Below, in pieces: positions 19,756 to 60,185 of a stretch of DNA of 64,000 nt. The stretch comes from Candidatus Uhrbacteria bacterium. GTDB taxonomy: Bacteria; Patescibacteriota; Patescibacteriia; JACQRZ01. Under the pieces are notes generated by a model. It searched no databases. It was not told the origin of the DNA and saw nothing but the letters and a program-made list of their open reading frames with translations. Location: NCBI GenBank assembly GCA_016186045.1, contig JACPMJ010000005.1:7143-71142 (forward strand), read 5' to 3'. Every line of letters begins with the position of its first letter. Within the stretch, counting starts at the first letter, position 1. The translations under genes and the position numbers were made by a program.

Positions 19756-19826
19756 GCTACCTCGCGCGCTGGCGGGTAGCTTGAGTGTCATTTCGATCCG
19801 CCAGCTGGCGGAGAGAAATTCCGACG
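19756..19826. repeat. palindromic repeat family member (hairpin GCTACCTCGCGCGCTGGCGGGTAGC plus GTCATTTCGATCCGCCAGCTGGCGGAGAGAAATTCCGAC)
   Basis: Core CCGCCAGCTGGCGG at 19798-19811. Confidence 0.7.
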
Positions 19827-19839
19827 ATTCAGTATGACG

Positions 19840-21666
19840 TTACTTGAGATTTTTTACGATCTCTTCAAGAATATCTCCGAAATTGTTCAGGCAGTCCTCC
19901 ATGGTACTGAACAAAAGTTCGGTGGGATAGATATGCGGAGTACCGTGAACCCCAATGAACATGTGAATGACGATAATGCCGGACTCCTTGAGCTCACGGG
20001 AGATTCGCGCCGCGAGCTTCAGGTCATCCGGACCGTCATCGCAGAGCATGATGAGAACTTTACGCTTTCGCTTTGACTCGCGTAGTTTTTTTGCGGCGAC
20101 CGTGAGCATGTGCGTATCCGAGTTCCCATCATCCGCGCTAATGACAACGAATGACGGGAACTTACTGGGAGGGCCGTAATCGTAGATGATTTTTGAATTG
20201 AACGCCCAGATGTTTCCCGCACACACCGGATGAAGCGCCATAATCGCCTCAGAAAAGAGAACGGCGATTTGTTTTGCTTGTTCTATCTTCTCCCCAGCCA
20301 TGGATCCGCTTCTATCAATGCAGAGATGAATCTCCGCATCAATATTTCGCTCTTCCACGATGTCTTTTAGAAATCCGGAGAGGCCTGTTGCGATGCGTGC
20401 GACCTCTCGAGTATCCAGCTCCCCCTCGTCCTGCCCATAGAGGATGTATTCGGAGGGATTTTCGAGACGCTTGAGCTTTCGCACCAGCGGCTCTACAAGA
20501 TGTTGGACCGAAGCAAGAATGCGATTATACGCGGGAGCGTGAACGCCATTTCTTGGAATGCTTTTGACGGGAACCGTATCTTCCCTGCCTACGGAATGTG
20601 GTCCGCGCGGATACGCGGCGCGCATACCTCTCATCCACTTGACGAGATTATTGAGCGCCTGATTTCTTCCTACTTTGAGAGTTCCTGCCATGATTGCATT
20701 GAGATTTCCAAGGAGTGCGGGATCCAGTGGCTCTCCCATCTCAATACTCGCGGCCAAGAGACAGAGCGCGATGAACTTTTGTTCAAATTCCTTGCGAAGA
20801 TTTTTGAGATTCTGACTCTTTCCCTGTTCCTTTTCTTTTTCATCAGGATCGCCAAGAATCGCGTGGATTTCTTGGGCGGCCCAGAGGAGATAGTCCGGTG
20901 TCGCAGTGAGAAGAAGTTTCGGAGAGATCAGTTTCATCGCCTTATGCACCTTCCTGATGCGCGGGCGCTTGTGCCACTTTGCCGCGAAGAAAAAATCTTC
21001 ATAGGCATCAGTTGGTTTCCAATTCCGAAGAATTAAGGTGATATGCGCCTCTCCTGTTTTTTGCGTCGAAAGGTTTCGAGCGCTCCGAGAGAGATTCTTT
21101 TTCTGCTTTTCTTTTTTTGCCGATATTTTCGCGTGGAGGGGTTTCGGATGCTCTGTGTTTCGTATGTATGTTGAGAGTATTTGCGCAAGGGTTTGTCTGC
21201 GCGCCATCGTGGAGACATAGGCGAGACGCCTACGCAGTGTACTCGCAAATCCCGGCGCATGGCCTGCGGTTAGGATATCATCTTTGCGATCAAGGATGAT
21301 ATTGGTGATATGTTGTAAGATATCTCCGCCAAAGTCGTACGCCTCTGCAAGAAGTTTTGTCCCATAAGGGGAAAACTTGATATGACCGCTCTCATGATAG
21401 CCGGTTCCAAAACCGACCTCCTCATGTCCTTCAGTGAAAAACCATGGAGAGATACGTACCTCGGCGATGCAATCCGTACTTGCGGTCGGAATACTTGCAT
21501 CAAAGATAAGCCGGAACGGCTTACCGATAAGCGCGGTAAGGTGATCACAGAGAATCGGAAAGACGCGTTCAAGAATCTTTTTATCCCGTTCTTCTTTTGG
21601 AAGTGCGGCCTCTATCGCCACATCCATCTGATCAAGGGTATCTTGAATACGGGAAAAAGCGTTCAT
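19840..21666 (-). CDS. von Willebrand factor A (VWA) domain protein, CobT-like architecture (about 430-aa unknown N-terminal region + C-terminal VWA)
   Basis: MIDAS motif LCIDRSGSMAG, VWA beta-alpha pattern in C-terminal third; last gene of RT-ATPase-VWA module. Confidence 0.8.
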   Translation of the reverse strand: MNAFSRIQDTLDQMDVAIEAALPKEERDKKILERVFPILCDHLTALIGKPFRLIFDASIPTASTDCIAEVRISPWFFTEGHEEVGFGTGYHESGHIKFSPYGTKLLAEAYDFGGDILQHITNIILDRKDDILTAGHAPGFASTLRRRLAYVSTMARRQTLAQILSTYIRNTEHPKPLHAKISAKKEKQKKNLSRSARNLSTQKTGEAHITLILRNWKPTDAYEDFFFAAKWHKRPRIRKVHKAMKLISPKLLLTATPDYLLWAAQEIHAILGDPDEKEKEQGKSQNLKNLRKEFEQKFIALCLLAASIEMGEPLDPALLGNLNAIMAGTLKVGRNQALNNLVKWMRGMRAAYPRGPHSVGREDTVPVKSIPRNGVHAPAYNRILASVQHLVEPLVRKLKRLENPSEYILYGQDEGELDTREVARIATGLSGFLKDIVEERNIDAEIHLCIDRSGSMAGEKIEQAKQIAVLFSEAIMALHPVCAGNIWAFNSKIIYDYGPPSKFPSFVVISADDGNSDTHMLTVAAKKLRESKRKRKVLIMLCDDGPDDLKLAARISRELKESGIIVIHMFIGVHGTPHIYPTELLFSTMEDCLNNFGDILEEIVKNLK

Positions 21667-21728
21667 GGAGTTCTCCTTTCATTGTGAAAAGTTGTCAAAG
21701 ATCTTTATGGTTATTGTAATCCTTTTTT

Positions 21729-21845
21729 AGGGAATAGAGGGTGTCATCCTGAGTGATAACGAAGGATCCCGTTGGTATCATGTTTTTAACATCGGGATTC
21801 CTCTCCGCCAGCTGGCGGATCGGAATGACATACATAGTATTCCCT
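21729..21845. repeat. A-type palindromic element copy 1 (GTCATCCTGAGTGA...GGGATTCCTCTCCGCCAGCTGGCGGATCGGAATGACATACATAGTATTCCC)
   Basis: Right 49 bp identical (1 mismatch) to 38451-38499; core CCGCCAGCTGGCGG 21805-21818. Confidence 0.8.
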
Positions 21846-22062
21846 AAAAAAGAGGGGGAACGAACGTTTTTCATTCCCCGTGGTGGAGAGGTTGGATATT
21901 TGATGGGCTGCCCCGTAGCCGGTATTCCCGCGATCGGGAATACCGTGCCGAGCCCTCGCGTTCATCGCGAGGGTGAGGGGGCCACGCTTACCCTGTTTGA
22001 CCGCAGACTCCCTGATTCTGGTACAGAATCAGATCAGCGTCCACGCAAAAGCGTATGCAGTA

Positions 22063-22116
22063 GGGTCACGTCTAAGGTGACCTACCTTTTTCGCATAGTG
22101 CAAAACGGTCAAGAAA
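22063..22116. repeat. B element copy 2 (GGGTCACGTCTAAGGTGACCTACCTTTTTCGCATAGTGCAAAACGGTCAAGAAA)
   Basis: About 90% identical to 23592-23646; contains hairpin GGTCAC-GTCTAAG-GTGACC; lies just 3' of ATPase gene. Confidence 0.7.
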
Positions 22117-22183
22117 TATCCAATGCGCCGTCTGGTACAAACGGCTCTCCCCTGTATGTGATGTGAGAAAGAAAGTTTAGAGA

Positions 22184-23341
22184 TTATGGAATCTTCATGG
22201 TAAGAGTGGCAAACGCCTTCGCCGCCTCTGTCCCGGACTTCACATCGATGGTTCCATCCTTCAAAACTTTAATGTCGGATGAATACTTATCAAGAAGTCC
22301 TCGCACGACCGCGAGTTTGAGCTTCCATCCTCCGAGCATGAGGCGCGCGGTGTTTCTGCATCCGCGATAACTCGGGGCGTATGAGATAGCGCCGGAATGC
22401 GCGAGATCGCGTATTGCTCGTGCGACCTGCACGATTGCGAGCGCGGCGCGTTCCGAGATACCCACCTCATCCTTGAGTTTTTTCACCTCGAAGTCCTCCG
22501 GCATGGACTCCACCCAAATGAATCCAAAACGATCCTGAAGAGCGGTGCCGAGAGAGAAGACGTCTTGATGCTGTGCGCCTTGATTCATGGTCCCGATGAA
22601 GTGAATATTCGGCGAGAGTCTGATCGTAACACTCCCGTCGGTCGTAGTAATAGCAATTTGCCCGGTGTCATCAAAAAGACCGTGCATACCCTGATGCGAC
22701 TTTTCATGGATGCGATTGATCTCATCCAAGATGACGAGGAAGTGCGTGTTCAGTCCTTGAGCGTATGCGATATTCGCCCGCTCTACGTAATCTGCAAAGG
22801 CGGACTTGACAAACTTTGTTGATGCATTCACTGCGGCATCGGATCCAAACATGTCGTTGCCATGCTTGATCGTCTCAATGTCCACCTTGCAGGGTTCTTG
22901 CCAGTGAAGGGCGTGAGCCACCGCATAGCCAAGGGTCGTCTTTCCGCTTCCCTTATCACCGAGAAGGATGACGTTGGTTCCATTGTTCAGCCAGTTCAAA
23001 AGCTGGCTCAACATAAGTGGATCGGTCCAGTGGCCAGGCAATTCTTTGATCTTTTGCCAGTCCGCAAGCTCCGTTTTTCTGGAAATAAGTCGCACAAACG
23101 ATGTACTCGTTCCCTTGCGACTTTTTTCTTGTCGTTCAAGTTCAACATGCCAAATATCACCATCATTGACGGCAACATTTGTCTGGTTTATCACCTGAAT
23201 CGCGGGAGGAATGTCATATTCCTCAACAAACGAAAGACAAGACACACCCTGTTCGGTGGTATGCGCTCGGGCAAGAAGTAAGTCCGCCATTATGTATCCA
23301 TCCTTTCTTTCTGTATCTTTGTAAAAGTACGGTTCCTCCAT
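22184..23341 (-). CDS. AAA+ ATPase, MoxR/CbbQ/NirQ/CobS-like, with about 110-aa N-terminal extension
   Basis: Walker A GDKGSGKTT, Walker B FLVILDEINR, sensor region IGTMNQG, arginine-rich C-terminal helical lid. Confidence 0.85.
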   Translation of the reverse strand: MEEPYFYKDTERKDGYIMADLLLARAHTTEQGVSCLSFVEEYDIPPAIQVINQTNVAVNDGDIWHVELERQEKSRKGTSTSFVRLISRKTELADWQKIKELPGHWTDPLMLSQLLNWLNNGTNVILLGDKGSGKTTLGYAVAHALHWQEPCKVDIETIKHGNDMFGSDAAVNASTKFVKSAFADYVERANIAYAQGLNTHFLVILDEINRIHEKSHQGMHGLFDDTGQIAITTTDGSVTIRLSPNIHFIGTMNQGAQHQDVFSLGTALQDRFGFIWVESMPEDFEVKKLKDEVGISERAALAIVQVARAIRDLAHSGAISYAPSYRGCRNTARLMLGGWKLKLAVVRGLLDKYSSDIKVLKDGTIDVKSGTEAAKAFATLTMKIP

Positions 23342-23359
23342 TTCAGATTATTAGACTCT

Positions 23360-23490
23360 GTCATTGCGAGGGATCCGCCTCCGTCTCCGCCAATTGGCGG
23401 ATGGCGGAGGTGGAAACCGTGGCAATCCCAATTAGAGATCCCTCGTCCCTCGGGGGTACTCGGGATGACATTACTTCGCTCGGGATGACA
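23360..23490. repeat. A-type-related palindromic element in reverse orientation (GTCATTGCGAGGGATCC...CCGCCAATTGGCGG...CTCGGGATGACATTACTTCGCTCGGGATGAC)
   Basis: Core CCGCCAATTGGCGG 23387-23400; reverse complement of 3' end equals GTCATCCCGAGCGAAG start of A-type element. Confidence 0.7.
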
Positions 23491-23591
23491 CACGGCGACT
23501 TTGATCCTATGGCGCAAGAAATGTTTTGTAAAGAAATGCTTGCGCGGATGGGATTTCCATTTGATCGAGGACGGCTTGATCAGATACGGTT

Positions 23592-23646
23592 GGATCACGT
23601 CTAAGGTGACCTACCTATTTCGCATGATGCAAAACGGTCAAGGAAA
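23592..23646. repeat. B element copy 1 (GGATCACGTCTAAGGTGACCTACCTATTTCGCATGATGCAAAACGGTCAAGGAAA)
   Basis: Immediately 3' of RT stop codon (23657-23659). Confidence 0.7.
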
Positions 23647-23656
23647 CTGGTATTTT

Positions 23657-24901
23657 TTATTTGAAAGGAATGGACTCGTCCGCAGTATCCTTCTTCTTGC
23701 GACTTCTGCGCCGAGGTGGCTCCTCGGTGGCAATCTGTGTTTCCGCCGAAGTTTCCGAAGTTTGCGGCTCTGGAGTGACAGCAGTCGTTTTCTTGCGTCT
23801 GCGCGGTTTCTTACCTAACTCTCCGGCAAGCTCATTGAACTTGATGGTCTTGAGCTCGGTTTCGGCTTTTTCCGTAATAGCACGAACCTTGCTTGGGAGC
23901 TTGTCAGAATAGATATGGCGAAGATAGCCGATAGTGCCGGCGATCTCTCCGTATACCTGTTTGGTGGGCTCCGCCTTGATGACCGCGAGGAGCTTGTTGA
24001 TCCTCGCGCGGAACTGGTTTAGCTTGTTTGGGGCAAGCGTAATCCGTCCGTCCGGAGCCAAAACGATTCCCGTGATCACTGGTACTGCTCCGGTTTTTGG
24101 AGTGAAGTACTTCGTCTTGTCTTTCCGTTCATGAGGAAAAAATCCATTCTTTTTCATGACGGCAAGAATCCTCTTTCGGAGCTCCCCGGGAATTTCTTCC
24201 TCAAAGGAGATCGTGAGATCATCGCACCATACCGTGATGCGATACTCCTGAAGCGGTGTGGAGTTTTCCGAGATCAGCTTCCAGATATCCTGATCCATCT
24301 TACAGCAGACGATATCAAGGATGCGTGGACTGGTCGGAGGGCCTTGCGGGAGACGGTCATGGAGACAGACGAGATCCACGAGAGACTCGAGCATCTGTTT
24401 TATCTCTTCCGCCTCGAATGTCTGTCCGGAAAATTGCTTCAGCGCAAAGGTGAAGGGTTTGCGAAGATTCGCGCGGATCCTACTCCGATAGACACTGGGA
24501 AAGGCGTTCACAATGTCGATCGAAAAGGCTCGCTCATTTCCCGCGTGGTGCTCTGCGTTTGTCTTCACACTGCACCCTCGCTGGTTCCCGTGCCTGCAGA
24601 AATGTACCGGAATGGAAATTAGAAATCTGTTAAGGATCTTTCGCTGGACGCTTTTAAGTTCATCACAGGGAGCCGCATAACGTCGTACTCCTCTGCCCGG
24701 CCCCTTTGATTCCGCCCACTCGCGGTATGCCGCCTTTTGACGAAGCTTGTCGAGACAAAAATCCCACTCCTGCGTGGAGAGATGAAGCAAGAGTCGTAAA
24801 ATTCGCGCAAGTCGTTCTGGAAGCTCCAGAACGCTCTCGAAATCCTTGTACACCCATTCTTTGGGCGTATGACGCCGACGCCGACGTGTTGAAGTCGCCA
24901 T
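23657..24901 (-). CDS. reverse transcriptase, retron-type/retron-like
   Basis: SKGPGRGVRRYAAP (motif 1), NAEHHAG (NAxxH), FSIDIVNAFPSV (motif 2), LPQGPPTSPRILDIV, VWCDD catalytic box (YADD variant), KTKYF, VITGIVL (VTG); 130-aa C-terminal extension with basic tail. Confidence 0.8.
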   Translation of the reverse strand: MATSTRRRRRHTPKEWVYKDFESVLELPERLARILRLLLHLSTQEWDFCLDKLRQKAAYREWAESKGPGRGVRRYAAPCDELKSVQRKILNRFLISIPVHFCRHGNQRGCSVKTNAEHHAGNERAFSIDIVNAFPSVYRSRIRANLRKPFTFALKQFSGQTFEAEEIKQMLESLVDLVCLHDRLPQGPPTSPRILDIVCCKMDQDIWKLISENSTPLQEYRITVWCDDLTISFEEEIPGELRKRILAVMKKNGFFPHERKDKTKYFTPKTGAVPVITGIVLAPDGRITLAPNKLNQFRARINKLLAVIKAEPTKQVYGEIAGTIGYLRHIYSDKLPSKVRAITEKAETELKTIKFNELAGELGKKPRRRKKTTAVTPEPQTSETSAETQIATEEPPRRRSRKKKDTADESIPFK

Positions 24902-25020
24902 GCGTATCCTTCCTTTCTCAATCTTTATGAAAAGAGCGATAAGAAACCTTTTGTTTTTGACACAAGGCTTCAGAATAGCTGATCACAAAAAGTGTTCAGA
25001 TATTCCGAAAACTCGAGATT

Positions 25021-25050
25021 AAAAAAGAGGACAAAATCCCCTCCTTTTTC
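25021..25050 (-). terminator. intrinsic terminator of rnhA (minus strand GGAGGGGATTTTGTCCTC + T6)
   Basis: Hairpin plus TTTTTT on minus strand, 60 nt after rnhA stop. Confidence 0.55.
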
Positions 25051-25111
25051 CCATATTTCAAAGAAACTATGGGTGTTTGAACGTTTCCTGCTTTACTCTA
25101 TCACTTCTTTA

Positions 25112-25537
25112 TTATTTTGTCAAGACCAGATGGGCATCTATCGCCATATTTACCAGCATATCCGCCTCCTTGTTTTTTTCACGAAAAATATGAGTAAATG
25201 TTATTTTTTTGAACTTTTGTTTAAGATTCCAAATTTTTAAAAATAATGGGGCGAGATTTTTATCCTTGACACGGTATATTCCATGGAGTTGTTTTACGAC
25301 AAGCTCGCTGTCTAAATAGCACCACACCTCCTGCGCATCCATCTCGTGCGCGCGCTCGAGCGCATACACCAGCGCTCGGTACTCCGCCTGATTATTTGTC
25401 GTCTCACCGATATATTTTTTGAAATGATGTTTTTCTCCTGTTTCTTTATCTTCCAAAACAATGCCGATGCCGGCGGGTCCGGGATTTCCCCGCGCGCCGC
25501 CATCGGTATGAATGATGAATGTTTTTTGATGAGACAT
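25112..25537 (-). CDS. rnhA: ribonuclease HI
   Basis: IHTDGGARGNPGPAGIGIV...NNQAEYRALVYALE...DSELVVKQ catalytic DEDD pattern. Confidence 0.85.
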   Translation of the reverse strand: MSHQKTFIIHTDGGARGNPGPAGIGIVLEDKETGEKHHFKKYIGETTNNQAEYRALVYALERAHEMDAQEVWCYLDSELVVKQLHGIYRVKDKNLAPLFLKIWNLKQKFKKITFTHIFREKNKEADMLVNMAIDAHLVLTK

Positions 25538-25560
25538 ATGATATTAAACTGGATTCCAGG

Positions 25561-25604
25561 GTCATCCGCCATCCACCAACTGGCGGAGGCGGACAGGAAT
25601 GACA
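25561..25604. repeat. palindromic family member (GTCATCCGCCATCCACCAACTGGCGGAGGCGGACAGGAATGACA) overlapping recJ stop codon
   Basis: Encodes the last residues RLRQLVDGG and stop of RecJ on minus strand. Confidence 0.7.
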
Positions 25605-37186: not shown

Positions 37187-37338
37187 AAAGCCTCATACAA
37201 TAAAGATAGTATATCATGAATAAAAAAATAAAAAAAGAGCGGAAAATAGAGAGAAAAATAGAGCAAAACCCTCCGTTTTCAGAGGGTTTTTGAGTATTGT
37301 TTTTTACTACGAACTGACAACTGTGTACTGTGTACTGA

Positions 37339-38355: not shown

Positions 38356-38404
38356 AGGGATAGTACTTAGTTCTTAGTTATCAGTTCGCAGTTATTTTTT
38401 ATAT

Positions 38405-38499
38405 GTCATCCTGAGTGAAGCGAAGGATCCCGTTCGTGATAAAGAGCTGGGATTCCTCTCCGCCAGCTGGCGGATCGGAATGACATACATAGTATACCC
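38405..38499. repeat. A-type palindromic element copy 2
   Basis: GTCATCCTGAGTGAAGCGAAGGATCC...CCGCCAGCTGGCGGATCGGAATGACATACATAGTATACCC; marks the gap-proximal edge of the GC-rich island. Confidence 0.8.
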
Positions 38500-42023: not shown

Positions 42024-42150
42024 AGGCCGTTGCAAAACTCAGCTAAGCATGTCATTCCCGCGAAGGCGGGAATCCAGTTCTTTTAATTTAAGAAGAATTC
42101 TGGATCCCCGATCAGGTCGGGGATGACAATCGGAGGGTTTTGCAACGGTC
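42024..42150. mobile_element. MITE-like insertion with about 15-bp TIRs (AGGCCGTTGCAAAACTC / GAGGGTTTTGCAACGGTC) carrying a GTCATTCCCGCGAAGGCGGGAATC...GGGGATGACAA palindromic element; flanked by 18-bp direct repeats TGTCAAGGAGCTGTAC(TG/AG) at 42006-42023 and 42158-42175
   Basis: TIRs and direct repeats read directly. Confidence 0.7.
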
Positions 42151-42195
42151 TCTGTACTGTCAAGGAGCTGTACAGCGCGAGTACATAGGTAACAC

Positions 42196-42672: not shown

Positions 42673-42701
42673 CTATCAGTCAAGAACTACTCGTTCTCCT
42701 A

Positions 42702-44165: not shown

Positions 44166-44359
44166 AACACCACTAATTGATGTCCTGAAGAGAAAGTGGG
44201 AGCAAATCAGTACGAATACTATCTACTCCCAAATTACTTCAACCCCGTATCTTTTCACGCGCCGGCGATTATCCCGGCAAACTTCGCGACGGCCCCTTCG
44301 ACAAGGACGCTCGTCACCTCCTCGTCCATGCAGTCATGAATATACTCCCTTCTTCTTGG

Positions 44360-45055
44360 CTATACTGACGTTGGAACGTAAAACTCAAGAATGTCGATAG
44401 TTCGTTCGATGCCGTCTCGTATTGTGTCTATCATGGAGACAAGTTCCTCTATAGATCGATACGCGAGCGGTGGTGCTTCTGGAAGAACCAGCGACGGTTC
44501 GCTCGACCCTTGTCCGAAGAGCTGTGAGATAATCCTCCTACCATTACTTGGTAGGGTACGCGCCTCTCGAAGTTGATTCTCGTACTCCCACCGAAGATCC
44601 CGGATCAAATTTCTGTACTCAATACGAGCCAGATCCTCTACCCAGACTTTATCCTCCTTAACCTCAATGATCATCTCACCTTTTAGACGTTCTGGCCCGA
44701 GCAGATATCTATCACTCTCTTTGTCATACCGACAACCCACATAATTTGCTATGGAGCCTAAGTATAGAGCTCTATGGCCTGCCCAACGAATCCGTATGAC
44801 GGTTCTGCTAAAAGCAATGTAGAGTGATCCCTCCATATTGTCTCCTTGGGCATGAAAGAGTTGACCACGTTCATGAACGATCCCCATGTTGGGGTTTACC
44901 TTATGTCCCATCCTCCAATGTCCAACGGAAACAAGACCGCCAATCTTTTGGAGTTTCTTGGTCTCCGAGAGTACATCGAGTACATGCATCAGCTCGTTAT
45001 ACTTTTCAGTGAGATTACTCACAGACTCCTGAACGGCCACGTTACAAATTTCCAT
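44360..45055 (-). CDS. hypothetical protein (231 aa), GC-rich island; His-rich patch GHWRMGHKVNPNMGIVHERGQLFH
   Basis: ORF only. Confidence 0.45.
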   Translation of the reverse strand: MEICNVAVQESVSNLTEKYNELMHVLDVLSETKKLQKIGGLVSVGHWRMGHKVNPNMGIVHERGQLFHAQGDNMEGSLYIAFSRTVIRIRWAGHRALYLGSIANYVGCRYDKESDRYLLGPERLKGEMIIEVKEDKVWVEDLARIEYRNLIRDLRWEYENQLREARTLPSNGRRIISQLFGQGSSEPSLVLPEAPPLAYRSIEELVSMIDTIRDGIERTIDILEFYVPTSV

Positions 45056-45420
45056 GAAATCTCCAGAGAAGGCTATAACCCCACTCGGCCTTTACCGAAT
45101 GCAAGGCGGATTTTCACCCTCACTTCAGAGCATGCAGAGAGAGCTCCGATGCCCTGAAGAGAAGGTGAAATATTTTCTATATCTAAAACATGGCTATTCT
45201 CCTTTCTTCAAGGGTTGAAGATTGTAAGGAACAATTTGTATTACTATAATCCAAATATAACAGAGAGAAATAACATGTCAATAGCAAATTGACCACTTTT
45301 CATTATAATTTCAAGATTATTCTGACCATAATAAAAGGATTTACTACAATAAGAGGAAAATATGTCAGATGTATTTGACATTGTTAAATTATATGATATA
45401 ATTAAATCAACATTCTCTGT

Positions 45421-46185
45421 ATGTATCAAACATTACTCACACAACTCGGACTCGCAGAAAAAGAGGCGACCATCTATGAAACGCTCGTAGAAAAGGGCTC
45501 ATTGACTGCTGGACGCCTACTGAAAGAACTTCCCTACAAACGAGGAGATATGTATTACCTTCTTTCACGATTAAAGGAAAAGGGATTAGTGACAGATGTC
45601 CTTTCCAAAAAGGGAGTTGCAGTATTTACAGCTGCGAATCCCACAACTCTTGAATCACTCGCAGAAAAAGTTCTTGAAAAGGCTCAGCAGATAAAAACAG
45701 GTCTGGATGCCGCACTTCCAAACCTGAAATCTCTATACAATCTCGCAATGGAGAAACCTGGCATGCGCTTCTATGAAGGTGAGGCGGGAATATGGAAACT
45801 ACTCAATGACACTCTTGACTCAAAAACCGAACTTCTCTTTTTGGGTGATCACGACGCAATTAACACTCATATTCCGACACTCAATAAAGATTATGTACTT
45901 AAAAGAAAAAAACGACACATCAAAAAGCGTCTTATCCAATTTGATACGCCATCCGCTCGCGCATTTGCACGTACCGGTGATGAATTCACCGAGGTTCGAC
46001 TTATTGCCACGGATGCGTCAAACATCCGAAGTTTCATGCATATCTATGATAACAAGGTATCGTATGTAACGTTTTTGGAAACCGCATTCATCGGCGTTCT
46101 TATTGAAGATCCAATGTTCTATCAACTTCAACGAGTAATGTTTGAATATATGTGGAAAACTGCCACACGTTTTACGAATTCCTAA
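45421..46185 (+). CDS. TrmB-family transcriptional regulator
   Basis: N-terminal winged HTH LGLAEKEATIYETLVEKGSLTAGRLLKELPYKRGDMYYLLSRLKEKGLV. Confidence 0.7.
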   Translation: MYQTLLTQLGLAEKEATIYETLVEKGSLTAGRLLKELPYKRGDMYYLLSRLKEKGLVTDVLSKKGVAVFTAANPTTLESLAEKVLEKAQQIKTGLDAALPNLKSLYNLAMEKPGMRFYEGEAGIWKLLNDTLDSKTELLFLGDHDAINTHIPTLNKDYVLKRKKRHIKKRLIQFDTPSARAFARTGDEFTEVRLIATDASNIRSFMHIYDNKVSYVTFLETAFIGVLIEDPMFYQLQRVMFEYMWKTATRFTNS

Positions 46186-48611
46186 CCACGATACTCAAAT
46201 ACAAGTTGAGCGTGCTCTGCGTTTTTTGTGTATCGAGAAAGAACGTAGCCGTGTGCCAATGGGGCGAATATCTCCTGCATTATACGGGGATCGAATAGAT
46301 CACGCGTGTCTACTTCAAATGCGATTATCGATTTTTTTTCGGCAATTTGCTCTGATATGTCGAGCAGTGAAAAAGAAAGGAGCGGCGACGGAAATTCCGG
46401 CTTTGATCTTGATTTGATTTGCCGATCAATAATAAGAACGCCGTCCTGCTCTTCTTTATCATAATGGAAACTAACTCCCTCGAATTTTGCCTGCTCGATA
46501 TAGGAGGCGGCAATATCTTTCCACACCGATGTCTTTCCACGAATTAATGCGTCTTTTGACTCCTTCTCCAGCGCCTGCATAATAATAGAAGGATAGAATC
46601 CCGACCCTCTGTATGCAGTCTCGAAAAACAACGCGCTCCAAAATTTTTCATGCGGTGCCGTGTCGGTGAACACCGCCGATCCGATAAGAGGTTTCGGAGT
46701 TTTATCTTCTCGCAAAATCACATAAAAACGGCTTTTATTTTCCGGATCATTTACCCGCGCGTCCAGCTCTGCAAGAAGGCGGTCAACTTTTGCATTGTCG
46801 CCCCACTCTTTGCGCAGACTTTTCTCGTACCCCGCATGCACCATTCTCGTTATTTCTTTATGGGTGCGCATTTCTTTGGAGGTAAACTCATGCAAGTGGA
46901 ATAGTTTTACGTCTTCTAGGTCGATATGCTCCCCTTTCAGTGCCGCAACCCCCGCGCAGATCATAGACGCCTGCTCGTCAATCATTTCCAGGTCTGCTAA
47001 CAACTCTTTTTGATTCTTTTTTTTCACTGCTCCATGCAATAATTCTTTGCCGCGAGCAAGGAGATTGACAGTGAATGCACGCACAACTGGTTCTGCTTTC
47101 GGGCCTCCTCCAAAATTTTCTCGAAGATAATCAGCCGCGCGGTAAGCTGTCTGGGCGATTTTCGCGTATTTCTGAAAGAGTGGTGCTGCCGCATTTCCAA
47201 ATCGCCTCCCGATATCAATAAGTTTTGCGCCAAATTCTAGATCTCCTTCAGTTGCAAGAAGCGAAGTAAGCGCGTCATTGCCAAATTGTTTTACAAAATC
47301 TCTCATGGAAAGAGCGTGCATAATATCTTGCTGACTAAAAAAACTTAAAAAATTACGTTGCACCCACAATGGCTGATGATTTAATGTAATACCGAAATGA
47401 TTTTCAATAATCTCGCGCATCTGCAGACACATAAGATACGAATATTCATCGTATGACGCGGGATCAAAAGAAGCGGCTCCAGGATGCAGTGCAGTAAAAA
47501 AATCCTCCTTCGCTAATGGGTAATGGGGAGAATGGCCCCTCTTCTCTGCGAAGGAAAGAATATTTACTTCTTCCCCAGGGAATAAGTGCGATATATAGTT
47601 TCGAAGCCACACTTCCAAATGAGGGGACATCATGATTGCGGCAGTGGCATTGGCTTTCGCTGCGTTCAGCGCTTCGTAATCCTCATCAGTAGCAAAAAAA
47701 ATCGCAGACATTCTCCCTGTTTTCTGATATTCAGCGATATAGTGCGGCGCGAGCTGATAATAGTGTGCGTTTGGATTGTTATCTTTTCCAATAAGATAAC
47801 CACTCTCATTTTCTTCTTTGAAATGTTTTACCCGATAACGTTCAAAAGAATCGATGTGACACCTTTTGCCACCGATCTCCTTACCCTCGATAAAATAACC
47901 AAGCTGCAAATAGCGACCATAAATAAGAAAATTGCTATTTCTATGACGCGCCATAATATCGGCAATTCCGTAAAATTTCTTAGCACACTCGCTTTGGATA
48001 TCATGTCTGTCTTGGGGTAGAGATGCAATCAAGGCGCTGCTATAATGTTCAAAAAAATCGAGAATCTTATGGGAAAGCACATTGGCATACGGCCGATTAA
48101 TGAGCTGCAGTAATATAAAACCCTTTGATGCAGACGGCGATAACGAGTCGAACGGATATAATACTTCCTTGTTAACCTGCAAAAGCTCACCAGATGCTTT
48201 ATTATCTGCTCGATATTGGGACGCTACTCCAAGAAGTGTAAGGAGAGAAAGAGAGAGTTTTGTATTGGGTTGTATTTGATTCGCGATTTCAGCCTCAAGG
48301 CTCCTGATAAGCGCGGGGCGTTCTTGTTCGGGTGCATATTCAAGAGTCGCGCGGACATTACGGATAATTTCGAAAGTTTCGCTTCCATCCTGATCGATAA
48401 AAAAAATAGAGAAATCTTTTGGCAGCAATTTCATAGCATCCTCCTCCGTCGGCACCTCCTGTATCAGCTCGCAGAGCGCAATTAGCTCCTGCACGGCATG
48501 CTTAGGGAGATCGAATCCCTCTTTTCTAAATCTTGTAAATGTCTCTATTAGTTCCTGCCGAATCGACGGAGGCGTTTCTGGTAATCTTTGTGATTCGTGT
48601 TCTGATCGCAT
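46182..48611 (-). CDS. hypothetical large protein (809 aa)
   Basis: ORF only. Confidence 0.5.
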   Translation of the reverse strand: MRSEHESQRLPETPPSIRQELIETFTRFRKEGFDLPKHAVQELIALCELIQEVPTEEDAMKLLPKDFSIFFIDQDGSETFEIIRNVRATLEYAPEQERPALIRSLEAEIANQIQPNTKLSLSLLTLLGVASQYRADNKASGELLQVNKEVLYPFDSLSPSASKGFILLQLINRPYANVLSHKILDFFEHYSSALIASLPQDRHDIQSECAKKFYGIADIMARHRNSNFLIYGRYLQLGYFIEGKEIGGKRCHIDSFERYRVKHFKEENESGYLIGKDNNPNAHYYQLAPHYIAEYQKTGRMSAIFFATDEDYEALNAAKANATAAIMMSPHLEVWLRNYISHLFPGEEVNILSFAEKRGHSPHYPLAKEDFFTALHPGAASFDPASYDEYSYLMCLQMREIIENHFGITLNHQPLWVQRNFLSFFSQQDIMHALSMRDFVKQFGNDALTSLLATEGDLEFGAKLIDIGRRFGNAAAPLFQKYAKIAQTAYRAADYLRENFGGGPKAEPVVRAFTVNLLARGKELLHGAVKKKNQKELLADLEMIDEQASMICAGVAALKGEHIDLEDVKLFHLHEFTSKEMRTHKEITRMVHAGYEKSLRKEWGDNAKVDRLLAELDARVNDPENKSRFYVILREDKTPKPLIGSAVFTDTAPHEKFWSALFFETAYRGSGFYPSIIMQALEKESKDALIRGKTSVWKDIAASYIEQAKFEGVSFHYDKEEQDGVLIIDRQIKSRSKPEFPSPLLSFSLLDISEQIAEKKSIIAFEVDTRDLFDPRIMQEIFAPLAHGYVLSRYTKNAEHAQLVFEYRG

Positions 48612-48810: not shown

Positions 48811-48883
48811 GGGTTCTCGGGTCAAGCCCAAGCCTGTCCTCGGACTTGATCCGAGGAATGGCGCATATATCGGGAATGACAAG
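48811..48883. repeat. palindromic family member (GGGTTCTCGGGTCAAGCCC...CCTCGGACTTGATCCGAGG...GGGAATGACAAG)
   Basis: Hairpins read directly; sits between tsf stop and the 809-aa gene. Confidence 0.6.
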
Positions 48884-49496: not shown

Positions 49497-49666
49497 GGAA
49501 GTGGGAGATTTTTTATGTTTATATTAGCGGAGATTCAATGAGAAATAGGCGTGGTGAGTAGTAAAAATCAATTGTTTGAGCGAAGCGAGTTTTGATTTTT
49601 ACGTTATAAGACGCGCAATATTTCTTTGAATCGGAGCGTCATAAACATAAAAAATCTCCCACTTCC
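49497..49666. mobile_element. MITE-like element copy 2 (170 bp, perfect 26-bp TIRs GGAAGTGGGAGATTTTTTATGTTTAT) between tsf and rpsB, opposite orientation to copy at 4104-4269
   Basis: Perfect inverted repeats 49497-49522 / 49641-49666. Confidence 0.75.
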
Positions 49667-50589: not shown

Positions 50590-50625
50590 TCATCCGGCTC
50601 CGCCAGTTGGCGGACGGACAAGGAG
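50590..50625. repeat. palindromic family member (core CCGCCAGTTGGCGG 50600-50613) in rpsB/rpmE divergent region
   Basis: Read directly. Confidence 0.6.
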
Positions 50626-50974
50626 ACACTGGAACACTTGTGATATAGTTTCTCGTAGCGAAATGATGATTTTTTGAGCGAAAACAATGAAGCGTGAGGA
50701 GGTGAATAGAAGCCTATTCATTGACGAGCGGTGAATTGTTTGCAGCCAAAAAAGCATCATTGCAGTAGAGAGGGCTGTATCACAAGTGTTCCAAAGGGCA
50801 TGAGAGATGAGTAAATAAACGATGGGATGAGTATATCATATCCTCAAAAACATTCAAGCCCCTTGATAAATTGTCTTATTCTTTGTATACTTTTGACATT
50901 TTTTATTCCATCTTGACATGAAAAACATTTTTTGACATACTTATTGAAATAGTTTCACTTATTACTCTCTTTAT

Positions 50975-52431: not shown

Positions 52432-52523
52432 CGTCAGTACACAGTACTTGGTACATAGTTGTAAGTAAAAATACAACTACACAATAACTGTGAACTGACA
52501 ACTAAGAACTAAGTACTGTTTAT

Positions 52524-53081
52524 ATGATTCTTTGCGACAAAACACTTCGTGAGCTTATCCAAAAAGGTGATCTTGGTATAGATCCTCTTGGCGAAAATGC
52601 CATCCAGCCCGCATCCATAGACCTGCGGCTTGGCAATCATTTCCTTATTCTAGATGATCATCACATGGATATTATTCGTATGGATGGTGAAAGCTCGTAC
52701 CGCGAAATTGTCGCGGATTCCGTGACGATTCCTCCGCACTCATTTGTCCTTGCGACAACGATTGAATACGTACGGGTCCCCGCATATCTCACTATGGCGG
52801 TAGAAGGCAGAAGCTCTGTGGGTCGCTTGGGATTATTTATCCAAAACGCCGGATGGATTGACCCGGGATTTGAGGGAAATATCACACTTGAACTCTATAA
52901 TGCAAACTCACTTCCTATCGTACTACAGGCGGGAAGACGTATTTGCCAAGCCGTCACACAAAAGCTTGACTTTCCATCTGAACGGCCGTATGCAGGAAAA
53001 TATAAGGGGCAGAAAAATACCATTGGCAGTAGAATTTTCCGAGATAAGGAAATCACCCATGACGAAAAAAGCACTACATAA
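52524..53081 (+). CDS. dcd: dCTP deaminase (dUTPase superfamily)
   Basis: MILCDKTLRELIQKG, GRSSVGRLG, GWIDPGFEG. Confidence 0.85.
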   Translation: MILCDKTLRELIQKGDLGIDPLGENAIQPASIDLRLGNHFLILDDHHMDIIRMDGESSYREIVADSVTIPPHSFVLATTIEYVRVPAYLTMAVEGRSSVGRLGLFIQNAGWIDPGFEGNITLELYNANSLPIVLQAGRRICQAVTQKLDFPSERPYAGKYKGQKNTIGSRIFRDKEITHDEKSTT

Positions 53082-55281: not shown

Positions 55282-55377
55282 TAGACCTGTTGCGAAATAG
55301 CTTCCCGGTCTCCGCCAGCTGGCGGAGGACAGAAGTGAGCCGGAAGAAATACATAATGGTATTTCGCAACAGGTCTA
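55282..55377. repeat. palindromic element with 18-bp perfect TIRs (TAGACCTGTTGCGAAATA / TATTTCGCAACAGGTCTA) enclosing core CCGCCAGCTGGCGG (55312-55325)
   Basis: Read directly. Confidence 0.75.
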
Positions 55378-55681: not shown

Positions 55682-55706
55682 TCGTATTCACCGGCTTTTT
55701 TATTTT
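55671..55706 (+). terminator. intrinsic terminator (AAGCCGTGTGA-TCGTAT-TCACCGGCTT + TTTTTATTTT)
   Basis: 10-bp stem with one bulge, T-run. Confidence 0.6.
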
Positions 55707-55715
55707 AAGAAAAAT

Positions 55716-56740
55716 CTACGAATTATACACCTTAATGCTTTGCACGAGGCCAACTGCAAGCAAGGACAATGCGAGTGAACTTCCGCCATAGCTCAGGAAT
55801 GGAAGCGGTATGCCAGTCAGGGGTACGAGGCCTATATTCCCTCCAATATTCAGCATGACATGTGTGAAAAACATCATAGTAATTCCAAGGACGGCATAGA
55901 GCGCGAAGTCGTCTCGGCATATCTTCATAATACGGACGAGACGATAAAGTCCGTCTGTGTTTCCGGTAAGAATTTCAGGTGACTTTGCGAACCAAATCCC
56001 AATCCCCGGCCAAACAGCTGGCCAGACCCGATAGCAATCATCGCCTGGCGGATATTATATCCGCTTCCCTGTACATCTGCGGATGGACGCAGAAATGTGA
56101 CGATCCGTTCTTTTTGGTAATCTTTCAAAAAAAACAACCACGCACCCAATGATATCACCGCAATGCCAAGCACAAGCGCGAAAATATATTTTTTTGGAAT
56201 GCCGCTTGCCATGATCATGCCGAACCAAATCAGAAATAATACGACCGCAGATCCTACATCCGGCTGGAGAAGAACAAGTGCTATGGGTACGCCGGCAATC
56301 AAGGCGCTTGCAAGAATATGGCGGAATTGTCCGATCTGGCGGGTGTGGCCGGAGAAATATCGTGCAAGCACGCATACAAGCGCAAGTTTTGCAAATTCAG
56401 CGGGCTGGATTCCAAATGATCCGAGCATAAACCAGCCGCGCGTTCCCCGGATTGTTTGGCCGCTTAGGAGTACTACTATGAGCGCGATACATACCGCTAT
56501 ATACGCAAGAAAACTTACACTTCGTATCATACGGTAGTTCAAAAGTCCAACGATGAAAAAAAGCACAAGAAAAACAGCGAATACGCCCAACTGTTTTTGA
56601 ATGTAAAAAAAATTTTGTGGATCTTTTCCAAGTCCCACACTGTACAGTGCGGCAAAGCCAAAACTGCACAGTACGATAATGCTTAAGAAAAGGAGAATGT
56701 CAATATCCCTGAAATTCCTCAAGAATCCAATTTGCGTCAT
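55716..56740 (-). pseudogene. SEDS family glycosyltransferase (RodA/FtsW) split by frameshift at about 55925-55930 with an apparent ~25-aa loss relative to E. coli RodA
   Basis: 271-aa ORF ends ...FLPETQTDFIVSSVL*; 70-aa ORF in another frame carries the conserved C-terminus NIGGNIGLVPLTGIPLPFLSYGGSS. Confidence 0.7.
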
Positions 56741-57774: not shown

Positions 57775-57867
57775 GGTGTGGTGTGACGTAGTCGTGCAAG
57801 ACGGGGTGGGGTTGGGTCTGGCTAGGTATGGTTTGGCTAGGCGAGGCGAGGCACGGTAAGGTAGGGC
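57775..57867. repeat. C-type array in inverse orientation ((GGNNN)n ending ...GGCACGGTAAGGTAGGGC)
   Basis: Reverse complement begins GCCCTACCTTACCGTGCC like the 39424 copy. Confidence 0.75.
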
Positions 57868-57956
57868 TTATTCAAAGGAATGAGCTCTTTTTAATTTGAC
57901 GAAAAATAGGTGTTTGATAAGGTAAAAGCGGTGAAAAACAGAATCGTCTAAGAACT

Positions 57957-58029
57957 GTCATCCTCGGGCTTGACCCGAGGATCCAGAGTTCATAGATCCC
58001 GGATCAGCGGAGGCGGATTGGGATGACAA
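57957..58029. repeat. palindromic family member (GTCATCCTCGGGCTTGACCCGAGGATCC...GCGGAGGCGGATTGGGATGAC)
   Basis: Termini GTCATCC / GGATGAC, internal hairpin CCTCGGGCTTGACCCGAGG. Confidence 0.7.
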
Positions 58030-58039
58030 TTTCATACGT

Positions 58040-60124
58040 ATGACGAATGTCAGACTCCTTGTTTCTCTGATTATCGCATCTGGAATATTTAGCATCTTTT
58101 TATTTGGAAATACCTTATCTGGATTTGAAGCTGTTTACGCAGAATCGCTCCCCGTACCATTTGTTCGCACCGCGAATTATTTTTTACGAACCGTTCCGGA
58201 TATCAATCCGAATACATACGATGTATTGGCCGCGTACGACCTTCTCATACTCCCCATGGAGGCGCAAATCTACAATAGGGAGTTTTTTGATTACGCGCGC
58301 AAAAAAAATCCTTATATTATTATCTTAGCGTATGTTCCCTCGCGGAGTATCAATATTATTGACATAGATGACGGCGCACAGATCCGCAAAAAATTAAAAA
58401 ATGGCATTCAGAACGAGTGGTATCTGCGTGACAGTCGCGGAAGTATCGTGCAGGCATGGCCGGGAACGATCCCTGTAAACGTCACAACAGAATGGAATGC
58501 ATATTTGCCGCAATACGTGCATGAGGTGATTCTTTCCACGGGTCTATGGGATGGAATTTTTTATGACGAGGTGCAAGACTCCATGACCTATCTCAATCAT
58601 GGAGATATTGACATCAACAGTGACGGCAAACCAGACTCAAAAGAAGATGCGGATATATGGTGGCAAGACGGCATGCGAATATTATTCAAGCATACCCGTG
58701 AGCGTATAGGTGAAAAACCGATTATTCTCACAAACGGAAGCTCTCTGTCCGCATATGAGACGTATGTAAATGGCAGAATGTTTGAAAATTTTCCCTCTCC
58801 AAGGGGACATGGAACATGGCTTGAGTCCGTAAAGTCATATTTGCATCTTGATAAAAATAACACGCGACAGCCGATAAATATCATAAATACTACGACACTT
58901 AATACTGGTAATAAAAATGATTTTCGCACCATGCGTTTTGGCTTAGCATCCGCGCTTTTGGCAAACGGCTATTTCGCGTTTGACTACGGTGATAAAGATC
59001 ATGGCCAGCTGTGGAACTATGATGAGTACGACGTACAATTGGGGAAACCTACGGGATCACCGGAGAATGCCCTCGCGGGAATATCTACAAATATCCAAGA
59101 AGGAGTGTGGCGAAGAGATTTTTTACAAGGCGCGGTATTTTTGAATGCAACAGAGCATCAACAGACGTTTGAGCTTGAAGAAGAGTTTGAAAAAATTCGC
59201 GGGTCACAGGATCCGAATCATAATAATGGATCCATTATCTCTGAAATATCCCTTGATCCATATGATGGTATCATTCTTCTTCGGCCATTGGATGCTATTT
59301 TTGACCAGCAATTTTTAAACGGCTCATTTGCAAAAATTTTTAATGCGGATGGATCCGTCAAACGCAATGGATTTTTTGCGTATGAACAGCGTGTACGCGG
59401 ATCTGCGCAAGTGATTATCTCAGATGCCGTGTTTGTTGGCAGAAAAATTATCATTTCCGCGGATAGAGGAGTGGTTTCCATGAATTTCGATGACGGCGTA
59501 CCGATATATTCTTTTCAACCGTTTGGAAATGATTGGAAGTTTCCGATCTCTCTTGCGCTGGGAAAAAATGCTTTGTATACTTCGCTTCTGGCTGTAGCGC
59601 CGGCGCAGACAAACATAAAAAAACAAAAACACGGAACCAGTATCAAGATATATGATCTTTCATCAGGCAAGGAACAAAAATCTTTTCAGCCATTTGGCAA
59701 AACATTCAAGGGCTCTGTCTCGCTCGTATTCGGAGATATTGATCATGACGGCGCAGAAGAAATCATTGCCGCCGCAGGCGCTGGCGGAGGCCCGCACGTC
59801 CGCGCATTTCATGCAGACGGCACGCCAACAAAAACAAGTTTTTTCGCATATGAAAAAAAATTCAGAGGCGGCGTAGCCGTAGCGGTTGGGGATGTGTTTG
59901 GTACTGGTCTGCCGCAAATCATCACTGCGCCGGGTCCGGGCAGAGCGCCGGAGGTTCGCGTATTTTATTTTGACGGAAAACAATATGGAAAAACATTTTC
60001 TTTGTCTGAAAAAAATCGTAAAGACGGAACGCGCCTGGCAGTTTCTGACATAGATCATGACGGAAAAGACGAAATCATCACATTTACCGCCAATGTTTTT
60101 ACTATAGCCGGAGTTTCCCAATAA
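58040..60124 (+). CDS. secreted protein: N-terminal putative glycoside-hydrolase-like (TIM-barrel, GHL-type) domain + C-terminal FG-GAP/VCBS-like repeats
   Basis: Signal peptide; repeats FGDIDHDGAEEIIAA, VSDIDHDGKDEIITF, GTGLPQIITAPGPG. Confidence 0.5.
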   Translation: MTNVRLLVSLIIASGIFSIFLFGNTLSGFEAVYAESLPVPFVRTANYFLRTVPDINPNTYDVLAAYDLLILPMEAQIYNREFFDYARKKNPYIIILAYVPSRSINIIDIDDGAQIRKKLKNGIQNEWYLRDSRGSIVQAWPGTIPVNVTTEWNAYLPQYVHEVILSTGLWDGIFYDEVQDSMTYLNHGDIDINSDGKPDSKEDADIWWQDGMRILFKHTRERIGEKPIILTNGSSLSAYETYVNGRMFENFPSPRGHGTWLESVKSYLHLDKNNTRQPINIINTTTLNTGNKNDFRTMRFGLASALLANGYFAFDYGDKDHGQLWNYDEYDVQLGKPTGSPENALAGISTNIQEGVWRRDFLQGAVFLNATEHQQTFELEEEFEKIRGSQDPNHNNGSIISEISLDPYDGIILLRPLDAIFDQQFLNGSFAKIFNADGSVKRNGFFAYEQRVRGSAQVIISDAVFVGRKIIISADRGVVSMNFDDGVPIYSFQPFGNDWKFPISLALGKNALYTSLLAVAPAQTNIKKQKHGTSIKIYDLSSGKEQKSFQPFGKTFKGSVSLVFGDIDHDGAEEIIAAAGAGGGPHVRAFHADGTPTKTSFFAYEKKFRGGVAVAVGDVFGTGLPQIITAPGPGRAPEVRVFYFDGKQYGKTFSLSEKNRKDGTRLAVSDIDHDGKDEIITFTANVFTIAGVSQ

Positions 60125-60132
60125 TGTACGAT

Positions 60133-60185
60133 GTCATCCTCGGTTCGCCTCCGCCAGTTGACGGATGGCGAATGACCGAGGATCC
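60133..60185. repeat. palindromic family member (GTCATCCTCGGTTCGCCTCCGCCAGTTGACGGATGGCGAATGACCGAGGATCC)
   Basis: Overlaps annotated ATG 60165 of next ORF. Confidence 0.7.

Follow-up and report, generated by a model that had tools for sequence, protein, structure and literature searches.

Two studies describe the closest known relatives of the repeats considered here, which populate a 64-kb stretch of a Candidatus Uhrbacteria (Patescibacteria) genome (hereafter, the window). Di Nocera et al. (2013; PMC3733652) delineated a superfamily of repetitive extragenic palindromic (REP) sequences whose tag, CGTC or often TGTC, is unpaired, whose stems start with AT and whose 3-nt tail approximates CCA. 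These CGTC REPs mostly form inverted dimers with structured spacers, and some lie within longer palindromes or genes; the Neisseria dRS3 repeats and RPE-4/-6 of Rickettsia are members, no transposase is known for the superfamily, and many REPs have been argued to act as RNA elements. Hairpins designated NTS in Neisseria and SRM in general are bound by SsnA, a 94-aa single-domain GIY-YIG nuclease that cuts a few nucleotides upstream, acts exclusively on single-stranded DNA (ssDNA) and on the tagged strand, and does not bind RNA; the ssn gene is typically flanked by SRM on both sides, resembling an insertion sequence, and the identity of the hairpin loop is dispensable (Chenal et al., 2025; PMC11893778). 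It was not until 2025 that the Ssn nucleases and their motifs were characterized, in Neisseria and a small number of other bacteria (PMC11893778). We estimate, with a probability of roughly 70%, that the tagged hairpins of the window are recently inserted elements of the SRM type which carry an exchangeable inner core and represent gene-less derivatives of SRM-ssn-SRM units, akin to miniature inverted-repeat transposable elements (MITEs).

The copies studied are located between 19 and 60 kb of the window. A preliminary description of this DNA listed 12 places with nested palindromic repeats, and the sequences it described are present at all 12. The motif CCGCCANNTGGCGG occurs in seven exact copies, compared to 0.00 in dinucleotide shuffles, and the full 16-mer core, TCCGCCANNTGGCGGA, in nine copies with at most one mismatch, all between 19 and 60 kb, against an expectation of 0.02. 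Every element folds strongly as ssDNA, with z-scores from −2.4 to −8.0. The interpretation of these sequences as one repeat family fails, because tagged hairpins lacking the core (42051, 48811 and 57957) and cores lacking the GTCAT termini (19087, 50590 and 55282) both exist. Instead, the supposed family combines three sorts of sequence, namely, tagged outer hairpins, an inner core, and host palindromes, that is, longer palindromes with elements in their loops. The elements are the following (strand in brackets; a dot where none is assigned; 'core' stands for the inner palindrome; TIR, terminal inverted repeat).

19072..19115 (−): multi-tier TCCGCC/GGCGGA palindrome in rnpB, with the core TCCGCCAACTGGCGGA on the RNA strand; no GTC tag
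19786..19825 (+): single tagged hairpin, T-GTC-ATTTC-GA-core-GA-GAAAT-TCC, after the stop codon of a VWA-like gene and before the native terminator
21742..21830 (.): two SRM units in inverted orientation, tags pointing outward, within the loop of a conserved host hairpin
21742–21770 (+): left unit of this pair, GTC-ATCCT-GA-GTGATAAC-GA-AGGAT-CCC
21794–21830 (−): right unit of this pair, GTC-ATTCC-GA-core-GA-GGAAT-CCC
23359..23490 (.): three-unit cluster; fold −36.2 kcal/mol, z −5.6
23359–23429 (+): cluster unit with stem ATTGC and a three-tier core cargo
23435–23470 (−): cluster unit with stem ATCCC
23471–23490 (−): truncated cluster unit
25549..25604 (−): single tagged hairpin at the 3′ end of recJ, GTC-ATTCC-(TCCGCC-TCCGCCAGTTGGTGGA-TGGCGGA)-GGAAT-CCAG
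38404..38485 (.): inverted SRM pair just downstream of the apparent gap promoter
38404–38431 (+): unit of this pair with apical GTGAAGC
38449–38485 (−): unit of this pair with the core; 53 nt are 98% identical to 21794–21846
42050..42128 (.): inverted SRM pair of canonical form, TGTCATTCCCGCGAAGGCGGGAATCCAG (+) and TGTCATCCCCGACCTGATCGGGGATCCAG (−), lacking the core
48811..48881 (−): SRM pair in degenerate, rearranged form; lies downstream of tsf and at the margin of a strain-specific island
50592..50619 (−): core TCCGCCAACTGGCGGA capping the native hairpin of the rpsB leader; no GTC tag
55282..55377 (.): 96-nt TIR hairpin (TAGACCTGTTGCGAAATA…) centred on the core; no GTC tag; −30 kcal/mol, z −8.0
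57956..58028 (.): inverted SRM pair, the first unit of which matches the SRM pattern
57956–57986 (+): unit of this pair, GTC-ATCCTCGGG-CTTGA-CCCGAGGAT-CCAG
57993–58028 (−): unit of this pair with a cargo of the GCGGAGGCGGA type
60132..60187 (+): outer hairpin of the 57956 type, its loop replaced by a two-tier core, TTCGCC-TCCGCCAGTTGACGGA-TGGCGAA; fold z −4.7

Several further statements of the preliminary description stand. The long inverted repeats near 21.7, 42.0 and 55.3 kb are confirmed, including the TIR at 55279/55360 (21 nt, 95% identity), and the two ~100-bp copies at 21729–21845 and 38405–38499 are indeed related through the 53-nt segment given above. The assertion that the repeats are not simple terminators is correct for the repeat copies but not for the left part of the copy delimited at 19756–19826: whereas the repeat occupies 19786–19825, positions 19756–19781 belong to the native terminator of the upstream VWA-like gene (19750–19780), which has a minus-strand T-run, is conserved in relatives and is not part of the repeat. 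Assembly duplication was considered as the source of the copies and ruled out, because the copies have diverged from each other, are placed in different contexts, and independent assemblies agree, the recJ copy being base-for-base identical in three independent Logan assemblies of the same organism. The Logan short-read contigs stop at the 23359–23490 cluster, as expected of a multi-copy repeat. At gathering thresholds, the only Rfam match was a tRNA, with no family covering the repeats, and our literature search found no report of the core sequence or of nested small repeats of this sort.

Judging from their sequences, the GTCAT…ATGAC elements are members of the CGTC/TGTC-tagged REP superfamily that includes NTS and SRM, so that their earlier assignment to 'REP/MITE-type' elements was right in kind but too coarse, these not being generic REPs. 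They follow a common grammar: an unpaired (T/C)GTC tag, an AT-initial stem and a mostly C-initial tail (CCA, CCC or CTC). TGTC immediately precedes the hairpin at 19786, 21742, 21830(−), 23359, 23470(−), 23490(−), 25604(−), 38404, 38485(−), 42050, 42128(−), 48881(−), 57956, 58028(−) and 60132; the tag is missing from the elements at 19072, 50592 and 55282. The basal stems are ATTCC, ATCCT, ATCCC, ATTGC and ATTTC, and the tails are CCAG (42050, 42100, 57956, 60132 and 25549), CCC (21742, 21794, 38404, 38449 and 23359), CTC (23435), CTA (57993) and TCC (19786). Pairs with outward tags are formed at 21742–21830, 38404–38485, 42050–42128, 57956–58028 and 23359–23470, in addition to the degenerate pair at 48811–48881. 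The units at 42050, 42100, 57956 and 60132 combine AT-initial stems of 8–9 bp with the CCAG tail; the loops of the first three are 4–5 nt long, and that of 60132 consists of the two-tier core. The unit at 42050–42077 corresponds to the Neisseria NTS consensus, CGTCATTCCCGCGMAVGCGGGAATCYRG, from which it differs at base 1 alone (27 of 28 bases equal). The published SRM pattern, HGTCWYN(0-2)YYVSBRHN(0-5)WNVSBRGN(0-2)RNCYNB, has three matches in the window (42050, 42100 and 57956), with 0.16 expected by chance. A strict scan for perfect-stem hairpins was discarded as too crude (14 matches versus 4.7 expected).

The window elements share with the SRM of the SsnA study the (H)GTC tag directly before an AT/AY-initial hairpin and the C that follows the palindrome; there, only the tagged strand is recognized (PMC11893778). 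With the CGTC REPs they share, besides the tag, the AT-initial stems, the CCA tail and the inverted pairing, the placement of pairs within longer palindromes and the spacers of 20–100 bp, which are often structured (PMC3733652). However, the CGTC REPs were described as having only stems of 8–9 bp and loops of 4–5 nt, with no nested or long apical parts, and the candidate phyla radiation (CPR) is not among the phyla listed (PMC3733652); likewise, Patescibacteria are not named in the main text of PMC11893778. SRM hairpins are present here in a phylum for which we found no earlier report of them, and in a two-tier architecture that escapes the published definitions.

In this architecture, found both in the window and in the loci fetched for comparison, GTC and a 5-bp basal stem are followed by GA, an apical hairpin, GA again, the other strand of the basal stem and the C-tail. 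The apical part, in every case placed between GA and GA, exists as many alleles, among them GCGAAGC, TCCGCCAGCTGGCGGA and a number of stems of the TCCCGA and GTCCGA types. The sequence GCGAAGC forms a very stable DNA mini-hairpin. Both the purine GA/GA junctions and the GCGAAGC-type apices are found on the tagged strand only, which fits a strand-specific ssDNA structure. An apparent GA…GAG asymmetry initially hinted at oriented insertion; this was ruled out, the core being flanked symmetrically by GA/GA and the final G forming part of the basal stem. The basal stem is identical with and without the core, as seen by comparing the hairpins at 57956 and 60132 as well as the two flanks of a GIY-YIG gene at locus L214 (see below). 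Thus, the core and the termini are separable modules.

Comparison with relatives indicates that the insertions are recent. The RecJ and GAPDH (MBI2644708.1) of the window are exact matches to proteins that NCBI assigns to Candidatus Uhrbacteria. We compared the window with three related genomes (loci L245/L253, L247/L251 and L249/L254), whose RecJ proteins are 85, 81 and 80% identical to that of the window; synteny among all four extends from the glycosyltransferase genes to RodA. In the comparison of orthologous regions that the preliminary description had proposed as a check, covering 11 positions, 10 are either empty in the relatives or occupied by different elements, and the insertions are accordingly recent and lineage-specific. 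The exception is 48811: L253 has an intact SRM pair there, L251 has just a terminator, and L254 has neither. Across the 22 kb that are shared, the window contains five elements, and the relatives two (both different), none and none; the core was not found in the relatives' share of these 22 kb, and the sole core-like copy seen in the relatives is at a different site in L254. The site of 19786–19825 is empty in L247 and L249 and holds a different element in L245, which also has an element pair of its own that is missing from the window. The site of 38404–38485 is empty in L251, with different SRM-type elements nearby in L253 and L254. The element at 55282–55377, placed just after the apparent −10 box of the gene for L25 (rplY), is absent from L251 and L253, the two relatives covering the site, and the 57956–58028 pair appears absent from L251, the only relative covering it, although the spacer aligns poorly there. 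At the 23359–23490 cluster, a non-coding stretch kept by the relatives between the genes for the reverse transcriptase (RT) and AAA5 is missing its 3′ part in the window.

Some of the elements sit in hairpin loops. The 21742–21830 pair (fold z −3.5) lies between the arms 21722–21736 and 21838–21852 of a host hairpin that is empty in L247 and L249 and has an apparent remnant in the third relative, and the 42050–42128 pair occupies the loop of the TIR 42018–42038/42137–42157 and folds as a three-way junction (z −6.8). As for larger-scale placement, the proposed concentration of copies at the borders of accessory DNA holds for the island at 38.7–48.6 kb but not for the RT module, which is syntenic in all four genomes. 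The island (38716–48611; ~9.5 kb, with a higher GC content) is unique to the window and has SRM elements at its borders. The tsf-gap interval in which it is found is hypervariable among the four Uhrbacteria genomes, containing one gene, one different gene and six genes in the relatives and seven genes in the window, and this slot is bordered by SRM in two of the four.

The link to Ssn nucleases comes from other genomes. A search of species-representative genomes for the exact core 21-mer, GATCCGCCAGCTGGCGGAGAG, returned at least 120 loci; among the 120 listed, there are eight open reading frames (ORFs) of ~90–125 aa encoding GIY-YIG proteins (Pfam PF01541). The architecture GTCAT…gene…ATGAC is found at L214, where one of the two hairpins flanking the GIY-YIG gene contains the core, at L244, and at the Uhrbacteria locus L255, which belongs to a different assembly and in which the gene for P0356 (MBI4272636.1) is flanked by GTC-ATCCC-GA… and …GGGAT-GAC. 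Relatives of the GIY-YIG protein are widespread in Patescibacteria, and tags point outward on both sides at 55 of 72 (76%) of their metagenome loci, compared to 19% of control windows for a 5-mer motif. Their invariant Y, Y and E residues are spaced as are the catalytic residues of SsnA (PMC11893778). Inverted hairpins thus bracket a ~95-aa GIY-YIG gene in CPR genomes, including one of the Uhrbacteria, just as SRM bracket ssn (PMC11893778), and because the same inverted, tags-outward arrangement surrounds ssn elsewhere, the pairs in the window look like gene-less derivatives of SRM-ssn-SRM units. Under this interpretation, an Ssn-type enzyme encoded elsewhere in the genome would handle the hairpins of the window in trans, and their insertion would take place in hairpin loops that are single-stranded or extruded, with no duplication of the target. 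The core would be one allele of the exchangeable apical module, which on the tagged strand is linked by GA/GA mismatches to the basal stem of 5 bp; in this lineage it would also spread by itself into core-like stems and into its own copies, giving rise to nested tiers.

Several observations weigh against this interpretation. There is no GIY-YIG gene in the window or in the ~40 kb available from each of the three relatives. Most units have a 5-bp basal stem, the GA/GA junction and a long apical hairpin, owing to which they miss the strict published definitions (8–9-bp stem and 4–5-nt loop) and fail the published SRM pattern. The core was found in the flanks of 0 of 80 metagenome ssn loci, and a GTC tag lies upstream of the 21-mer in 32 of the 121 occurrences among the matches listed, the rest being in other repeat families, so that the core is not intrinsically an Ssn feature. 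Furthermore, we know of no copy mechanism for the CGTC-REP/NTS/SRM superfamily, and Ssn has been shown to cut DNA rather than to transpose (PMC11893778).

The inner palindrome behaves semi-independently of the hairpins that carry it. The core, TCCGCCA-NN-TGGCGGA, occupies the tips of the SRM hairpins, of the 55282 TIR hairpin and of the native rnpB and rpsB-leader hairpins, its copies outside the tagged hairpins being those in rnpB, in the rpsB leader and at the centre of the 55282–55377 element, and it is nested in itself at 19072, 23359, 25549 and 60132. Over 35 nt, the rnpB insert and the cargo at 23380–23414 share 91% identity. In both native recipients, the stem resembles the core (ATCCGC in rnpB and TCCGGC in the rpsB leader), which, on the evidence of these sequences, suggests copying between hairpins guided by stem homology, for example, through template switching or conversion.

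Beyond the window, the exact 21-mer is present, among the matches listed, in many classes of Patescibacteria, in Bacteroidota, including the cultured Draconibacterium orientale, and in uncultured Gammaproteobacteria, Caldisericia and Elusimicrobia, along with a few matches that are likely coding or due to chance. It had no matches in 2.9 million viral contigs, and there is accordingly no sign of carriage by phages. The bare 16-mer was rejected as a diagnostic sequence, as its matches listed in viral contigs were dominated by coding sequences and terminator-like AAAAA-core-TTTTT hairpins. The 21-mer is also embedded in several untagged repeat families of Bacteroidales and Rikenellaceae, exemplified by GCCCCGCCTGGGCGGGGCGATCTCAT-21mer-TAAATTCCGATAC; such Bacteroidota loci among the matches listed include L129, L172, L175, L178, L189, L198, L211 and L213.

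Three of the insertions affect recJ, rnpB and the rpsB leader. The element at 25549–25604 supplies the end of recJ, as had been proposed, but contributes 13 codons and the stop rather than the 9 codons originally counted: the protein ends …LSKN-VIPVRLRQLVDGG*, with the last 13 codons and the stop derived from the element, and is 605 aa long, compared to 592, 592 and 593 aa in L245, L247 and L249, all of which lack the element. In rnpB, the palindrome lies in a peripheral hairpin between P18 and the 3′ strand of P4; the hairpin reads ATCCACC-TCCGC-TA-TCCGCCAACTGGCGGA-G-GCGGA-TGATGGAT in the window and ATCCGC-loop-GCGGAT in the relatives, being 25–27 nt longer in the window (fold −14.3 kcal/mol, z −4.1). 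The rnpB gene as a whole (19038–19691, minus strand, ~654 nt) scores 65 bits on RF00010, for which the gathering threshold is 100, owing to large clade-specific expansions common to the relatives and not to the repeat. In the rpsB leader, GTCCG-TCCGCCAACTGGCGGA-GCCGGAT in the window corresponds to GTCCGGC-GAA-GCCGGAT in L253. Rickettsia palindromic elements (RPEs) of ~100–150 bp are reportedly found in frame within ORFs, going by accounts that Ogata and colleagues gave in 2000 and 2002. The window resembles that case in that small palindromic elements are tolerated in genes, and RPE-4/-6 are themselves classed as CGTC repeats (PMC3733652), but in recJ the element takes the place of the C-terminal end, and another copy resides in an RNA gene. 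Occasional intragenic copies of CGTC REPs, notably in replication and repair genes, provide a parallel to recJ (PMC3733652). On palindromic elements in RNase P RNA genes, the literature search found nothing relevant. The element at 60132–60187, with its 9-bp stem, overlaps the first ATG of ORF 60165, a start that is a mechanical ORF call.

The separability of the core raises the possibility that it is an independent, tiny mobile or convertible element which enters hairpin tips by template switching or gene conversion, the complementary stem arms serving as the two microhomologies, with the SRM being mere landing sites. Such an element would be comparable to the small dispersed repeats (SDRs) of heterocyst-forming cyanobacteria, which Elhai and colleagues (2008, Genome Res 18:1484; cited in PMC3116915) reportedly described as imperfect palindromes of 21–27 nt, apparently mobile, variably present at orthologous positions, nested in each other as well as in larger elements, and not known to have an enzyme; the sequences and the phylum differ from those of the core. 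We consider this explanation possible but less likely than not. The nine copies are all apical, and the hosts are of at least four unrelated kinds (SRM loops, rnpB, the rpsB leader and the TIR element). The core-like stems of both native recipients, the shared multi-tier unit of rnpB and the 23380 cargo, the four self-nested elements, and orthologous sites that lack the core while one core-like copy is present elsewhere in L254 would all be in keeping with it, as would the occurrence of the exact 21-mer in many unrelated repeat contexts across phyla among the matches listed. However, the mechanism is conjectural, the native targets other than SRM number two, the core may simply be carried along by SRM variants, with ordinary recombination between similar hairpins accounting for its exchange, and its identity across phyla is hard to derive from template switching alone. 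A stronger version, in which GA-TCCGCCAGCTGGCGGA-GA is a self-propagating 16–21-nt apical module that is copied into hairpin tips via microhomologies of the stem arms and has spread unchanged across Patescibacteria, Bacteroidota, Gammaproteobacteria and other phyla with no dedicated enzyme, strikes us as rather doubtful. If true, it would amount to a mode of DNA mobility smaller than any known transposable element, acting on, among others, Ssn-type hairpins, other MITE-like palindromes and hairpins native to essential RNAs.

The remaining explanations fare worse. Co-transcribed stem-loops could have a part in stabilizing the 3′ ends of mRNA, in transcription attenuation or in guiding RNase processing, their spread being secondary, and the location of copies just after stop codons (19786, 25549, 48811 and 60132) or in 5′ leaders (38404, 50592 and 55282), the mismatch of the recJ copy, which is G·U-compatible on the mRNA strand, and the argument that many REPs are RNA elements (PMC3733652) would all be in line with such a role. 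We nevertheless regard it as an improbable primary explanation, because the stabilizing GA/GA junction and the GCGAAGC mini-hairpin are strand-specific features of DNA, the mismatches at 23386 and 60150 turn into C·A on the transcribed strand, Rfam had no match, Ssn does not bind RNA (PMC11893778), and the orthologous genes of the relatives work without the hairpins; an RNA-level role as a side effect is possible. Mobilization as classical REP or REPIN by a RAYT (Y1/HUH) enzyme, or as MITE by a DDE transposase, is highly improbable despite the palindromic, mostly intergenic, inverted-pair and polymorphic nature of the copies: the tag is (T/C)GTC and not GTAG, the window ORFs scanned include no Y1 or DDE transposase, inspection by eye of the junctions and empty sites revealed no target-site duplication at 21742–21830, 38404–38485, 42050–42128 or 57956–58028, and what such hairpins flank in related genomes is a gene for a GIY-YIG protein. 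Similarly, we give very little credence to the palindrome being a duplex-DNA operator for a dimeric regulator or a partition-type protein. A perfect 16-bp palindrome, and a 21-mer that is identical in Patescibacteria, Bacteroidota, Gammaproteobacteria and other groups among the matches listed, might be expected of an operator, but the core invariably caps a longer hairpin instead of occupying fixed positions in promoters, resides within an RNA gene and at a coding 3′ end, is nested in itself, and differs sharply in copy number between close relatives.

Other features of the window deserve mention. The module at 19840–25537 (minus strand), conserved in all four genomes, consists of RNaseH, reverse transcriptase, AAA_5/CbbQ_C and VWA-like genes, the latter two of which are preceded by a conserved non-coding stretch (23584–23645 and 22055–22116) with an apparent TTGACC promoter followed by GGTAGGTCACCTTAGACGTGA…; the stretch before the AAA5 gene is shortened in the window by the SRM cluster. 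Within the strain-specific island, a 746-aa ORF (39668–41908, minus strand) with Pfam RNA_pol_Rpb2_6 and Rpb1 domains 1 and 2 looks, by its domain composition, like a fused single-chain two-barrel RNA polymerase. CCTTACC/GTGCC-type repeats with a ~10-nt phase lie upstream of apparent promoters at 38584–38630, 39421–39487 and ~57790–57860 and recur at the orthologous sites of the relatives. Other MITE-like hairpins, with TIRs of 19–26 nt, are located at 4103–4270, 49497–49666 and 50630–50793; two of these end with …TTTATGTTTA, and the one in the rpsB leader is absent from the relatives. Short repeats of the ACTGTGTACTG and AACTAAGTACTG types are found near gene ends at 37306–37351 and 52438–52532. 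Finally, rodA (55694–56740, minus strand) appears to be broken by an in-frame TGA at 55925–55927, with the C-terminal part of the protein encoded in another frame, whereas the relatives have intact RodA of 366 aa; a frameshift, a sequencing error or the gene being a pseudogene might account for this.

Taken together, these observations extend the SRM motif grammar to a CPR/Patescibacteria genome, including a near-exact copy of the Neisseria NTS. In practical terms, the published SRM search pattern misses most two-tier copies, and the repeats break short-read assemblies. The elements are tolerated in the gene for an essential ribozyme, in the leader of a ribosomal protein gene and at the 3′ end of recJ. 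Patescibacteria have tiny genomes and are thought to depend on DNA uptake. The present findings raise the question of whether SRM-ssn-SRM units seed gene-less pairs in these bacteria, and whether such pairs mark hypervariable slots.

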